Shown one piece after another: positions 3,508-52,217 of a DNA stretch of 64,000 nt (its first letter is position 1; every line of letters begins with the position of its first letter). The notes beneath the pieces are model-generated. The model was given only the letters and a program-made list of their open reading frames with translations, made no database searches and was not told the origin of the DNA. The translations under genes were made by a program, and so were the position numbers. The DNA is from a virus (taxonomy: Duplodnaviria; Caudoviricetes), in the IMG/VR virus record IMGVR_UViG_3300035208_002849, positions 32,001 through 96,000 of that record; one strand, 5' to 3'.

Positions 3508-3516
3508 TTATAAACT
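3508..3516 (+). promoter_or_regulatory. TTATAAACT putative late promoter upstream of the omegaRNA
   Basis: Exact copy of the recurrent motif, 24 nt before the omegaRNA scaffold. Confidence 0.7.
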
Positions 3517-3520
3517 ATTG

Positions 3521-3800
3521 AGAGAAACACGTTAGGTATCGTCAACAACCCCTAGACTGAAGATTTAGGGGCTTGCTAAGTGACCAGATATAGTCACTGA
3601 GAGCTTAGTAGGATATATTGAATTTGTTGACTAGCCTGTGCGAACATGTCCCGTTAGGGACATGCATAGCAAACTGAACCATCGTGTTGACAACACAATC
3701 ACTCTCTGATGCTCGTCCAGTTAGAGATTCAAGTGAGGTGGTCAGTGGCGAGGATGTATATATACCCCTAGAAATAGGGAGTGGTCGTAAGACCAAATTT
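3521..3800 (+). ncRNA. omegaRNA (HEARO-like): ~20-nt 5' guide plus scaffold starting at 3541
   Basis: GTCAAC(3541) pairs with GTTGAC(3626) followed by TAGCCT; CATGTCCC/GGGACATG stem; GATGCT..CCAGT and TGGCGAGG segments resembling IscB/IsrB omegaRNAs; directly 5' of isrB; ends approximate. Confidence 0.75.
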
Positions 3801-4837
3801 TAAAAAGGAATGATAATGTTAGTAGGTGTTGTATATAATGGAAAGGCTTTGATGCCAACTTGCCCTACAAGGGCAAGGCGACTCATTGCGTCCAAACATG
3901 CAACGCCTTTTATCCATAAAGGTATTTTCTGTATCAGACTGAACAGAACACCTTCTGATAACAAAATTCAGTCAGTTACCGCCGGGGTAGACCCCGGCTC
4001 AAAAAAAGAAGGAATTTCTGTAGTTACTAAAACAAAAACTGTATTGAATATACAGTTGGATTCAGTGACGTGGGTGACAGACACACTAGAATCCAGACGG
4101 AACGCTCGTAGAGCGAGACGTTTCCGTAATACCCCATGTAGAAAAGGTAAACCAGTGATAGATAAAACTGATTGGATTCCACCGAGCACCAAAGCTCGGT
4201 GGCAAGCCAAACTCAACCTGATTAAATCTCTTACTCAGGTATTTCCAATACAAACAGTTGTGGTGGAAGATATTAAAACCAAGTCCATCAAAGGTAAGTC
4301 AAGATGGAACGCATCGTTCAGCCCGTTAGAAACGGGTAAACGATGGTTTTATTCCAGTTTAACTGATATCGGATTAGAAGTTATCACTAAGCAGGGGTAT
4401 GAAACAGCCGAGATGCGTAAGCAACTCGGTCTGTCTAAGAATCCTAAGAAACTTTCGAATACATGGGATGCACATTGTGTCGATTCATGGGTTCTAGCTG
4501 CGTCACAGACGCAGGGTAAACCAAGCATTGACACTGATATGCTACTGATTAAACCAATGCAGTTTCATCGTAGACAGTTACATGCATTCCAACCTTCGGT
4601 TGGTGGATTTCGCAGAACCTATGGTTCTACTCGATCTATGGGATTCAGACGTGGATCTATCGTCAAACACTCTAAATACGGGGTTTGTACGGTAGGTGGA
4701 ACATCCAAAGGTTTTATCAGTTTACATAGCTTAACTACAGGAAAACGGTTGTGTCAGAACGCTTTGCGTTCCGACACAACTTTTAAATCATTTAACAATT
4801 ATTTTATCAGACCACTTAGGGGTTTCATGGAGACCAT
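3541..4837 (+). mobile_element. IS200/IS605-superfamily IsrB (OMEGA) element, non-autonomous (no tnpA)
   Basis: Left end GTCAAC..CCCCTAGA-loop-TTTAGGGG hairpin, structured ncRNA, isrB ORF, remnant right-end TTAGGGGTTTC; boundaries inferred. Confidence 0.75.
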
Positions 4838-4841
4838 ATGA
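3810..4841 (+). CDS. isrB: IsrB RNA-guided nickase (PLMP + split RuvC, no HNH)
   Basis: ALMPT (PLMP), RARRL, GVDPG (RuvC-I), RRNARRARRFR bridge helix, VVEDI (RuvC-II), AHCVDS (RuvC-III); 343 aa; no HNH/CxxC region. Confidence 0.85.
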   Translation: MIMLVGVVYNGKALMPTCPTRARRLIASKHATPFIHKGIFCIRLNRTPSDNKIQSVTAGVDPGSKKEGISVVTKTKTVLNIQLDSVTWVTDTLESRRNARRARRFRNTPCRKGKPVIDKTDWIPPSTKARWQAKLNLIKSLTQVFPIQTVVVEDIKTKSIKGKSRWNASFSPLETGKRWFYSSLTDIGLEVITKQGYETAEMRKQLGLSKNPKKLSNTWDAHCVDSWVLAASQTQGKPSIDTDMLLIKPMQFHRRQLHAFQPSVGGFRRTYGSTRSMGFRRGSIVKHSKYGVCTVGGTSKGFISLHSLTTGKRLCQNALRSDTTFKSFNNYFIRPLRGFMETI

Positions 4842-5938
4842 AAGCTCGTAAAATTGCAGGAATTCGCCTAGTTAACTATATTCATGATAGTATCAACTGG
4901 AAAGATCACAGAGACATTGTATTGGACTTCTGGGTGGCATTCAAGTGCCGTGAGTCTGGCTATTACCCAAAACAGTTCGATGGTATGTTTGTCGTGGAAG
5001 AACTCCCCATACAGGCCCAAAGTGACTATGAAGCATGGTTTAATGGATTCGATTTCCAGACGGAAGAAGATAAGGACTGGCTAGAATTTGTCAGCGACAC
5101 CCTGAATATCTTCTATCACACCCAAGATCCTATCGAAATGCCAGAAGAAACATGGTATATCGACCTAATGCAATCCGAAGTGAAAGCTCGTGAAATTGCA
5201 GAGAAACAGGTATATCATGGGAATCCCAATATTAACAATTTCTGGAAAATCGATACAAACTCCAAACCCGATGAAGTTGGTGGTAGACGTAATGGGTATC
5301 TATTTACCTCCGAGCTGGCTGAAATCGATCCGAGTGACACAAAGGGATTCTATTGGGCAATTGCTTTCCAGTGTCCCGAAACCGTGAAACTGTTTTTCCT
5401 TGATGGGGAGCAGAAAAAAAGTAAATGCATTAACTGGGCAGCTAATTGTACTCACATGACTCTACTGAAAATTACTGGGGATGGTCGTTTCCGGGTTGAA
5501 CCAGTATTCGTTGAAGGAAAGGCATGGCGTAGTGACCGAAACATTCCTCAGGGCAATCTACCTACTTCTCCGCTATCTGGACGAGCACTAAACAAATACT
5601 TTAATCATAATTTCAAAGAAATGTATGGTATTTGGGATGAGATTGATGAAAAAACTAAGAAAGCAAATGAAGCCGCTAACCAACGTAAGAACGCAGTGAA
5701 TACGTTCAACGATGAACAAGTTAAGGTTAGTAAGGTTCTTGATAAGACAGTCAATGAATTTATTGTTGATGGAAACGTATCCCCAGAGAGACGTGAACGC
5801 AATAAAAAGATTCGCCAAGCTATCCGTGAAAAGAACAAACTTCGTGAGCGAGAAATCAAAAAGAAAATGCGTGATATCGAGAAAGCTGAGACCAAGCAAA
5901 GTAATCGAGATCATGACAAATACAATGCTTTCAAATAG
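4838..5938 (+). CDS. Hypothetical protein (basic coiled-coil C-terminus)
   Basis: 366-aa ORF; ATGA overlaps the isrB stop. Confidence 0.75.
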   Translation: MKARKIAGIRLVNYIHDSINWKDHRDIVLDFWVAFKCRESGYYPKQFDGMFVVEELPIQAQSDYEAWFNGFDFQTEEDKDWLEFVSDTLNIFYHTQDPIEMPEETWYIDLMQSEVKAREIAEKQVYHGNPNINNFWKIDTNSKPDEVGGRRNGYLFTSELAEIDPSDTKGFYWAIAFQCPETVKLFFLDGEQKKSKCINWAANCTHMTLLKITGDGRFRVEPVFVEGKAWRSDRNIPQGNLPTSPLSGRALNKYFNHNFKEMYGIWDEIDEKTKKANEAANQRKNAVNTFNDEQVKVSKVLDKTVNEFIVDGNVSPERRERNKKIRQAIREKNKLREREIKKKMRDIEKAETKQSNRDHDKYNAFK

Positions 5939-20824: not shown

Positions 20825-21887
20825 ACGTATCAGGGCGAAACGGATACCCCTTCAATGGAGTTACCTCCCCACATTTTGGGCAAATGTGATTAACAATCGG
20901 CTCTGCAATGAGAGAATTGCTATTAACCAATTTGACTAGATCCAAAAAGTCCAATGCACTCCATTGACTGATTGCTTGTGCACGTTCACGAAGATCTGGA
21001 ACACCAATATCAGTGATTACAGCAAGCCGAAGAAGATCAACATATTCCTGACTTGGCATCTCATCATTGGAATAGAAATCTTCTTCAAGTACCGTGAGCA
21101 CTTGTTTAGCATGCCATCTACGAGCCAATGTAATACGTACAACAGTTCCCGATCTCAATTGAGTTTCTACGTAACCATGTGGTAAAAACTTCTTTGCAAC
21201 TTCATCGGGAGAGAAATTTGCATCCCATGTTATCTGTTGAAATCGAACTGCATATTCTGGATCTTCAATCTGGAAATCACATTCTGGATTTTCACATACG
21301 AATCCATTTGATGGGTAATTGTATCCGGGGAATGATGTTGCACGTAACCACATGGTTAGATACAACTCATCCGCAGATAATATTTCATCGGGAAGAACAT
21401 CTCGAATACGGCGACCAAATATCTCATCAAAACGTGAATGAATGTTAAACTCATCCATACTCTGAATCAATAACAAATCTTCAACCTTCAATGCCTGAGC
21501 GAGAAGTTTATTGTTGTAAAAAAGTCCCTTAGATGGGAGATTTTCCACTTCAATAAACGTTTCGTATGCAATTTGATTCTGCGGGATACCAGAGCTTGTG
21601 GGAGCACTAGGGAAAACAGGGGAAGCACCCAGAGGTGCTTGACTCTGTAGATAATCACTTGGAATATCCACTGTTTTCGGTTCCTGTATAGGGTTTGTTT
21701 CCGCCACAGATTTTTTTGCCACTACAGGTTTCGAAACAGGTGGAAGATCCTGTTTTTTCTTTTTAATAGGCTCCTCAGCACCACTAGCAAGCCCCATATT
21801 TCTTAGTTGCTGCTGTGATTTCTTAGCTTGCACCAATGCAGCAACTGCATCGCTATCAAGTTGTTGGGTCAATTTGTTACCAGACAT
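20805..21887 (-). CDS. Baseplate hub assembly protein gp26-like
   Basis: LPSKGLFY, LKVEDLLLI, DELYL..WLRATS, CENPEC and CPKCG motifs. Confidence 0.7.
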   Translation of the reverse strand: MSGNKLTQQLDSDAVAALVQAKKSQQQLRNMGLASGAEEPIKKKKQDLPPVSKPVVAKKSVAETNPIQEPKTVDIPSDYLQSQAPLGASPVFPSAPTSSGIPQNQIAYETFIEVENLPSKGLFYNNKLLAQALKVEDLLLIQSMDEFNIHSRFDEIFGRRIRDVLPDEILSADELYLTMWLRATSFPGYNYPSNGFVCENPECDFQIEDPEYAVRFQQITWDANFSPDEVAKKFLPHGYVETQLRSGTVVRITLARRWHAKQVLTVLEEDFYSNDEMPSQEYVDLLRLAVITDIGVPDLRERAQAISQWSALDFLDLVKLVNSNSLIAEPIVNHICPKCGEVTPLKGYPFRPDTYVPFDT

Positions 21888-50999: not shown

Positions 51000-52217
51000 T
51001 TAATCATTCATATCGAATTCATCACCTTCTCCGGTGGAATCGGAGTAATCTACATCTGCATCCACGTCAAGGCTCTCTTCTTCGTTGGTATCATCGTCAT
51101 TATAATCAAAGTCAATTGGCTTTGTTAACTTCAAACGACTCTTGACGTATTCATTGACTTCATCGAAAATGGTTCCGATAGTCGATTTCTTATGAATGTC
51201 AGTTTCTTTAACAACTAACCACTTATCAGGGGTCAATTTAGGGTCTTTGATGACATACCAGTTATGTTTACCAGCTTTTTCTGGACCAACAACACCTTTG
51301 GCATCGAATTTGGATGACCACTTTTCGAGTAAGTTAGCAGCAAGGGCAAATTCATGCACGCCATACCACTTATTGAGGCCCTTTTCCCATGCGAGATACA
51401 TGGAAGCTTCCTGACCATCAATACACAGACGACTTTTGATGTTCTTTGCAGTGATAAGAGTACCTTTACGAACGGTTCCTTCCTTGTACTGCTTTTTACG
51501 CATACTCAAGATTACAGAAGCAGCGTATAGACCACCACTACCACCAGCAACCGTATTCGGGTCACCGTAACCACCGATGTTCTTATATACGTGGTTAGTA
51601 ATCAAAAGAGGACAATCAAGCTGACCGAGACGAACAAGAACCGACTTATAGAAGTGTTTAAGTTCCTTCTGCAAGCCCATGTTGTTCACGAAGTTTTCCT
51701 TCTTGATATCTTCCTGACCCTTAAGGCTGTCCAACATACCCTGTGAGTCGATTACGAATGCACACTTGTTGGGATTTTCCTTTTTGGTTCCCATTGCTTC
51801 TTCAAGTTGTGTCAAGATCTTATCGAAGTTGACCTTTAGTTTTTCAACAATAGACTGGGTAACAATCTTGAAAGAACCTTCGGGAAGACCGAATGCAATA
51901 AGATCATCATCAGTCAATGCGTTTTCGGTATCAATGTAATAGATAAAATATCCAGCTTCTACCAGAGGACGTGCAAATCCGTAAATGGCGAAGAATGTTT
52001 TACCTACAGCTTGCTCACCAGCAAGCATCACAGCACGATTGCCCGGAAATCCTTTAGTCATATCCCCCGAAATGAGGGCATTGAATGTATATGAACCAGT
52101 ATCGATCCAGTGCTTGATTTCCTTTTTGCGTCCACTATCGGCCAGTCGGTCACCAGTCTTCACATTACTGAAGAAACTGAAATCGGGAGCATCATCTTTC
52201 TTTTTCTTTGGTGGCAT
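51000..52217 (-). CDS. uvsX: RecA-like recombinase UvsX
   Basis: DTGSY..NALISG, AGEQAVGKT, IDTE, IDS, TNHVY, GGSG..YAAS, KSR. Confidence 0.92.
   Translation of the reverse strand: MPPKKKKDDAPDFSFFSNVKTGDRLADSGRKKEIKHWIDTGSYTFNALISGDMTKGFPGNRAVMLAGEQAVGKTFFAIYGFARPLVEAGYFIYYIDTENALTDDDLIAFGLPEGSFKIVTQSIVEKLKVNFDKILTQLEEAMGTKKENPNKCAFVIDSQGMLDSLKGQEDIKKENFVNNMGLQKELKHFYKSVLVRLGQLDCPLLITNHVYKNIGGYGDPNTVAGGSGGLYAASVILSMRKKQYKEGTVRKGTLITAKNIKSRLCIDGQEASMYLAWEKGLNKWYGVHEFALAANLLEKWSSKFDAKGVVGPEKAGKHNWYVIKDPKLTPDKWLVVKETDIHKKSTIGTIFDEVNEYVKSRLKLTKPIDFDYNDDDTNEEESLDVDADVDYSDSTGEGDEFDMND

Follow-up and report, generated by a model that had tools for sequence, protein, structure and literature searches.

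An ISC1-type IsrB-omegaRNA element at the start codon of a jumbo-phage gene and its possible spread by RNA-guided nicking

How does a mobile element persist between the promoter and the start codon of a phage gene, and does the RNA-guided enzyme that it encodes help to carry it from phage to phage? These questions are raised by a locus in the 64,000-nucleotide stretch of DNA analysed here (the window), bases 32001-96000 of the 131-kb IMG/VR viral contig IMGVR_UViG_3300035208_002849. An earlier note on this DNA had described an omegaRNA and an isrB gene at the locus and had proposed that they form an RNA-guided homing system. In this study, we assign positions 3541-4837 to a 1,297-bp non-autonomous element of the ISC1 type (IS200/IS605 superfamily) with an omegaRNA gene and isrB. 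The element is a clean, recently mobile and partly decayed member of a known family. The best explanation as a whole, to which we give a probability of about 0.5, is that it arrived by TnpA-type transposition and then lost a terminal hairpin, and that its IsrB-omegaRNA complex may nick the empty allele in mixed infections.

All of the features concerned lie on the plus strand. The promoter of the interrupted gene, which now stands upstream of the element, is the phage box TTATAAACT (3508-3516), a variant of the TATAAATA box of T4 late promoters. The 24-nt leader of that gene (3517-3540) directly abuts the omegaRNA scaffold (3541-3809), so that the 3' part of the leader (about 16-20 nt) is the predicted guide. 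The scaffold begins with the transposon 5'-GTCA end (as GTCAAC) and contains a 5' subterminal hairpin (3549-3571) that folds. The isrB gene (3810-4841) encodes 343 amino acids (aa) with a PLMP/RRXRR region, a split RuvC domain and a domain that interacts with the target-adjacent motif (TAM). Its stop codon lies within ATGA (4838-4841), which is at once the N/ATGA insertion target, the inferred TAM and the start codon of an interrupted-but-intact conserved late gene of no known family (366 aa, 4838-5938). In the degenerate 3' end of the element (4808-4837) the subterminal hairpin is reduced to its 3' arm (4815-4822), and a GGAG (4829-4832) can act as a ribosome-binding site for the downstream gene. 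The box, the leader, GTCAAC, the open reading frame (ORF) and the ATGA stop/start overlap are all found where the earlier note had placed them, and we regard this anatomy as almost certain. Scans for sigma-70 promoters and terminators gave results no better than shuffled sequences.

The strongest evidence for the boundaries comes from alleles with and without the element. When the proteins of the two flanking genes were looked up by exact match, 14 contigs of near-identical phages from independent samples were obtained. In four metagenomic contigs (L016/L024, L025 of 110 kb, L026 and L028) the site is empty and the leader runs directly into ATGAAAG without duplication, and in the other ten (L019-L023, L027 and L029-L032) the element is present with the same two junctions. 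Because the empty and occupied alleles define both junctions, the element can be set at 3541-4837, which bears out the proposed boundaries; a base-by-base alignment of the four empty alleles showed no target-site duplication at N/ATGA. All empty and occupied alleles have the same promoter and leader, the identity of the leader being counted in 4 empty and 6 occupied alleles. The predicted empty allele, guide followed by ATGA, is therefore present verbatim in four contigs with promoter and leader unchanged, and the search of related phages for this junction, which the earlier note had suggested, recovered it exactly as expected. The occupied allele was expected to escape recognition, and in it the guide is indeed followed by GTCA instead of ATGA. 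The leader sequence is unique in the window, and no off-target of the guide was found there. The exact 21-nt empty junction gave 0 matches in viral contigs, the empty alleles being found only through the exact-protein look-ups, and a metagenome contig scan with the downstream protein returned a 69% relative only. The site is empty in all of the more distant relatives (83%, 77%, 69% and below); the empty state is therefore ancestral. On the same ground, excision was rejected as the origin of the empty alleles.

The protein is identified as IsrB, a member of the HNH-less IscB family (OMEGA), and nickase activity is predicted. It matches Pfam RRXRR (PF14239; E 8e-31), and no match to an HNH domain was found in it with Pfam. 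DtIsrB (PDB 8DMB) is matched by sequence with an E value of 1e-30 and an identity of 26%, and an AlphaFold model (predicted local distance difference test score, pLDDT, 80) superposes on 8DMB with template modelling (TM) scores of 0.75/0.78 and an E value of 6e-25 over 349 columns. The RuvC motifs had been described as intact, and this holds: the catalytic residues D61, E153, H222 and D225 align to the DtIsrB motifs and do not vary among 39 homologues. Conservation extends to the LMPT motif and to the arginine-rich bridge helix RRNARRARRFR. An exact-protein look-up of IsrB and of P0231 returned no record. Between two haplotypes, the ratio of nonsynonymous to synonymous substitution rates (dN/dS) of isrB is 0.26; the gene is under purifying selection, and no isrB haplotype has lost a catalytic or TAM-reading residue.

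The omegaRNA was examined by the HEARO model search that had been suggested. The Rfam HEARO model (RF02033) can be aligned in full to 3541-3763 (model positions 1-211, E 3e-5) and thus begins exactly at the proposed scaffold start, but the score of 36.2 bits is below the curated gathering threshold of 83 and tells against the assignment. The Rfam HEARO seed is built on IscB-type RNAs. HEARO hits below threshold were also used by Meers 2023 (10.1101/2023.03.14.532601). A consensus structure of the 270-nt region, derived from nine sequences (the window and eight relatives), has 37 pairs, 18 of them with compensatory changes.

The reading of ATGA as the TAM is strengthened by residues of the C-terminal domain. 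In DtIsrB, R323 and Q326 read G3 and A4 of the NTGA TAM; ATGA and TTGA are cut whereas ATGG is not, and the Q326R substitution relaxes the TAM (Hirano 2022, PMC9581776). The corresponding positions of the window protein are occupied by R313 and Q316. Across IsrB loci in IMG/VR (L037-L115), the fourth base of the junction varies with the residue that corresponds to DtIsrB Q326: Q occurs with ATGA in 22 cases and with ATGG in 2, and R or K with ATGG in 5 and with ATGA in 3 (Fisher p 0.005). The R..Q pair and the covariation of Q with an ATGA junction support the proposed ATGA/NTGA TAM. At these loci, IsrB elements also lie next to start codons much more often than expected by chance. In 19 of 48 non-redundant loci, an ORF of at least 80 aa has its first ATG in the first ATGA that follows the isrB stop, which is true of 7.3% of the flanking ATGA sites taken as controls (p 4e-10), and the stop/start ATGA overlap seen in the window occurs in 5 of the 48. 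At least 102 IsrB loci are present in IMG/VR, and IsrB occurs in nine GenBank phage records; phage Ma-LMM01 is among the known phage carriers. Side by side with these counts, we observed three IsrB genes on one 365-kb phage contig and, in L034, a TnpB-like gene (Cas12f1-like_TNB, 328-1470) right beside the IsrB element.

We regard TTATAAACT as a real promoter of the T4 late type, whose activity would fall late in infection. The motif TATAAACT has 28 copies in the 131-kb contig, of which 23 are intergenic where intergenic DNA makes up 10% (p 9e-19), and at 19 of the 28 a same-strand ATG follows 10-44 nt downstream. It lies 14-40 nt upstream of the genes for the tail sheath, a giant baseplate protein, the tail-tube operon and an amidase. 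An ATAAACT box also precedes the orthologous gene by 20-27 nt in most (about 40 of 55) of the distant relatives, the G+C-rich ones included. The late promoter that had been claimed upstream of the element is thus upheld as far as its intergenic position and its association with structural and lysis genes are concerned, but its late timing is only presumed. The further proposal that the promoter sets the length of the guide would apply to the window site only: siblings and relatives have no such promoter box at their left flank, and because the promoter-adjacent position is specific to the window site, a promoter-set guide length is not a design rule of the family. In the 75 nt upstream of the matches in L116-L170, the ATAAACT box and a divergent AGTTTAT box are kept at 47% to 77% protein identity, and in some lineages the orthologous gene lies within an operon instead. 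The interrupted gene has 108 homologues on contigs up to 466 kb, and its product has no match in Pfam or PHROG. The product ends in a long Lys/Glu/Arg-rich tail and is conserved in more than 100 jumbo-phage contigs.

The source phage is a T4-like jumbo phage. CheckV estimates the 131-kb contig to be 31% complete, with 69% of the genome outside it, and because a near-identical version of the protein downstream of the element is encoded on contigs up to 457 kb, the genome is put at roughly 0.45 Mb. The contig carries T4-like tail sheath, baseplate and UvsX-like genes, the UvsX-like recombinase gene lying at 51000-52217. No close cultured relative of the phage was found, and a megablast search of GenBank phages with the element region gave no match.

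Whether the element could have moved by transposition was judged from its siblings. The 90% cluster of the window's IsrB holds siblings with other C-termini. Two elements (L171 and L172) share 94% and 93% identity, respectively, with the whole of the window element. Their left flanks are unrelated to that of the window, and consequently their guides differ; their right junction is the same and stands before other ATGA codons. L171 contains a run of N (a scaffold gap) at 1575-1590, 41 nt past the right junction, so that its right-hand neighbour is uncertain and the separate site is defined by its left flank only. In a phage that is roughly 90% identical (L014, 1-100), the end of a sibling element stands directly before the ATGA start of an 84-aa gene, and the same site is empty in the window's own phage (G000:C1:97176, minus strand, 1.2 kb past the window end). 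A related jumbo-phage contig (G002, IMGVR_UViG_3300033562_000783) encodes a Y1 TnpA at 20992-21348 (E 3e-41) and carries IsrB at another site, its orthologue of the window's site being empty. No TnpA was found in the 131-kb contig, which represents 31% of the genome. Since siblings stand at other ATGA sites and a related phage has TnpA, the element family appears to move among ATGA sites of the phage clade by ordinary transposition. In view of these 93-94% identical siblings at other ATGA sites with intact hairpins and of the Y1 TnpA of a related phage, the earlier suggestion of spread without a transposase is not supported for the family.

The window copy differs from its siblings at the 3' end. 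Compared with L171, L172 and L014, 12 nt are missing after 4813 in the window copy and in every other copy at the site. This deletion took the 5' arm of the 3' hairpin, its loop and the usual stop codon that the loop bears. With that stop codon gone, isrB continues through the degenerate 3' end with its last 10 codons and terminates only at the TGA in the target. The DNA fold of this end is -2.4 kcal/mol (z 0), versus -8 to -10 in the relatives, and the 3' hairpin is intact in the siblings L171, L172, L014, L033 and L035. Of the hairpins that belong to the two ends, the 5' one is present in the window copy and the 3' one is not intact. These features identify the window copy as a hairpin-less derivative, a decayed member of ISC1 / IS200-IS605. 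Because 12 nt of the 3' hairpin are gone, its excision by TnpA is probably no longer possible. It is plausible that, with the 3' hairpin lost, homing is the only route of spread left to this copy.

Starting from the observed anatomy, alleles, siblings and purifying selection, the following course of events can be proposed, in which the transcript start, the nicking and the homing are predictions. The element would have entered N/ATGA at the late-gene start codon by TnpA-type single-strand transposition, without target duplication. The late gene's own TTATAAACT promoter would then transcribe the leader, the omegaRNA, isrB and the gene as a single unit, and the terminal GGAG together with the ATGA stop/start overlap would keep the late gene translated. 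The last 16-20 nt of the leader would serve as the guide. In phages with the empty site that circulate alongside, the same sequence is followed by ATGA, and in the carrier it is followed by GTCA. The TAM would consist of the start codon and the beginning of a Lys codon, and its drift would be barred because mutation would cost the start codon. The 12 nt of the 3' hairpin would have been lost after arrival. In a mixed infection, IsrB-omegaRNA may nick the empty allele, and UvsX-type recombination may repair it from the occupied genome. Such repair would bias the inheritance of the insertion ('non-restorative homing'), or at least penalise the competitor. The preconditions of homing are present at the locus: a perfect guide-target match, a locked TAM, self-protection of the carrier, a UvsX-type recombinase and purifying selection. 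To RNA-guided homing between phages taken by itself we give rather less than an even chance.

Several observations weigh against homing and agree with a simpler history, in which a single TnpA-mediated insertion lost its hairpin and was inherited vertically, the empty alleles being the ancestral state in sister lineages and IsrB and the omegaRNA, intact as they are, having no role in the spread of the window copy. The occupied alleles share one flank haplotype, with 0-2 single-nucleotide polymorphisms (SNPs) over about 4 kb per side, from which the empty alleles differ by 0.3-1.2%, and SNP 4885 is perfectly linked to occupancy. None of the 55 more distant orthologous sites is occupied. The four empty alleles come from samples other than those of the occupied ones, so that the two alleles were not seen together in one sample, and the hairpin is lost in all occupied alleles. 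A single flank haplotype is what one insertion passed on vertically would leave. Homing with co-conversion would link the flank to occupancy just as well, and the population data carry no positive signal of homing. In addition, we know of no OMEGA element for which nick-driven copying has been shown, and IsrB only nicks. On the other side, simple descent sits poorly with the dN/dS of isrB and with the intact catalytic and TAM-reading residues of every haplotype; the omegaRNA has only 4-5 SNPs, and the match between guide and target is still perfect. The signal of selection, in turn, may stem from exchange with functional sibling copies. Weighing these points, we consider inheritance of one insertion without any role of IsrB a possible but unlikely account.

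The possibility of such exchange arises from a patchwork within the occupied alleles. When window/L031 was compared with L021, L019 and L027, the two haplotypes differed at 41 of about 1,060 element positions (3.9%), in patches at 3867-4397 and 4661-4746, whereas their flanks differed at 1 of about 4,100 positions (about 0.02%). At the 41 sites, siblings at other loci match the L021 haplotype 74 times and the window haplotype 7 times, and the derived states are carried by window/L031. The stretch of about 30 nt at 4661-4691, in the TAM-interacting domain, exists in three haplotypes, and members of the 90% cluster of IsrB are visibly mosaic. Because the siblings side with L021 and members of the cluster are mosaic, the window/L031 haplotype has imported or fast-evolving patches, for which exchange among element copies is the likeliest cause; a search for the donor of these patches found none. 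Independent homing from diverged donors was also considered as the cause of the 3.9% difference and was rejected, since the identity of the flanks extends to the very edge of the element on both sides. The difference is better explained by patchy exchange with siblings or with copies that were not sampled.

It is also conceivable that the nickase damages the late-gene start region of co-infecting relatives that lack the element, so that more carrier progeny result whether or not the element is copied. Marker exclusion by the Seg/Mob endonucleases of T4 is an analogue. The guide and TAM match the co-circulating empty alleles, the promoter is of the type that precedes structural and lysis genes, and homing enzymes can be weapons between phages (PMC13565253). 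A single nick, however, is easily religated, and by sequence alone this exclusion of competitors is inseparable from homing; we judge it improbable as the main effect. The classical restorative role, in which IsrB re-installs the element on a sister genome copy after TnpA excision, is demonstrated for IscB/TnpB (10.1101/2023.03.14.532601) and likely for the hairpin-bearing siblings L171, L172 and L014, but it can hardly apply to the window copy, which lacks the 5' arm and loop of the 3' subterminal hairpin and whose 131-kb contig encodes no TnpA, though 69% of the genome lies outside that contig.

Nicking of empty alleles in mixed infections has to be compared with what is already established for related systems. 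ISC1 elements have a 5'-GTCA end, an N/ATGA target without duplication, proof from empty sites, subterminal hairpins and a Y1 TnpA that acts in trans (Kapitonov, Makarova, Koonin 2016, PMC4810608). Like the window element, ISC1-1_MA of Microcystis aeruginosa is non-autonomous and encodes only an HNH-less Cas9 homologue, begins with 5'-GTCA, is inserted at N/ATGA without duplication, has subterminal hairpins and depends on Y1 TnpA in trans. The window element, unlike ISC1-1_MA, resides in a jumbo phage, and the ATG of its target serves as a start codon that closely follows a phage promoter; its 3' hairpin is half deleted, and its ORF reads through the end into the target TGA. The DtIsrB-omegaRNA complex (8DMB) shares with the window IsrB the fold, the absence of HNH, the D-E-H-D RuvC residues, the R..Q pair and an omegaRNA of about 270 nt with a 5' guide. 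The window protein differs from it by its 26% identity and by a 10-aa C-terminal extension that results from the deletion. A viral relative, K2IsrB, was obtained from a viral metagenome and characterised alongside DtIsrB (Hirano 2022, PMC9581776).

For IscB and TnpB, Meers 2023 demonstrated that guide plus TAM equals the element-free joint, found that the GstIscB TAM TTCAT reads ATGAA on the iscB strand, and remarked that IscB elements point in the direction of transcription from upstream (10.1101/2023.03.14.532601). The window element agrees with these systems in that the guide is the flank, the TAM is the transposon target, the element-free joint is the sole target and the ATGAA is the same. 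Whereas they make double-strand breaks and are restored on the sister chromosome after TnpA excision, the window IsrB is a predicted nickase, its copy is probably dead for excision and its target would be a different phage genome. The enzyme would resemble phage homing endonucleases in its proposed role, namely that an enzyme made by the carrier cuts or nicks the cognate site in a co-infecting relative, into which the element is then copied by recombination. I-HmuI and I-BasI of Bacillus phages are nicking homing endonucleases. Intron-encoded I-TevI and the free-standing SegF/Mob of T4 are other examples (PMC13565253). The window IsrB is not a member of this group and has no homology to it; recognition would be by an RNA guide and a 4-nt TAM, not by protein.

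The design logic of the locus is already published, namely the target and 5' end (Kapitonov 2016), the NTGA TAM (Hirano 2022) and the identity of guide plus TAM with the empty site (Meers 2023). Homing directed by an RNA guide, as put forward in the earlier note, is not a new idea but the published IS200/IS605 model of Meers 2023. Transfer between phages has been named as a theoretical case as well: a 2026 review treats 'transposon non-restorative homing', with co-infecting phages or plasmids as recipients, as a theoretical extension, and it also cites TnpA-independent spread of IS605 among plasmids (PMC13565253). The known class of mechanism is unchanged by the locus. Rather, the locus is an unusually clean natural test case, since the same phage exists with and without the element, the guide perfectly matches the empty allele, the TAM is locked in a start codon and the transposase route is probably closed. 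To our knowledge, no natural role has been established for the IsrB nickase, and transposon rescue has been shown only for the double-strand cutters TnpB and IscB.

A broader view, which we hold as doubtful, is that phage IsrB elements are RNA-guided 'start-codon parasites' and that nicking alone now maintains the window copy, as a gene drive between co-infecting jumbo phages. Such elements would possess a TAM (ATG+A) that cannot be mutated, a guide transcript from the promoter of the interrupted gene, and a 3' end with a substitute ribosome-binding site and a stop/start overlap of its own, for which reason the insertion would be harmless. If true, this gene drive would be the first natural role for an IsrB nickase. 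The start-codon habit and the trend in the TAM-reading residue may be useful for predicting the TAMs and guides of uncharacterised IsrBs.

One further structure was observed within the 3' coding region of isrB. A 15-bp hairpin at 4747-4781 overlaps the stretch that codes for the TAM-reading motif, and it is conserved at the same place in L033, L034, L035 and L037. In five elements its RNA fold has z values of -3.2 to -6.7, and compensatory changes occur between the elements. It might act in the RNA, as a signal for processing or stability, or else as a structure in the DNA.

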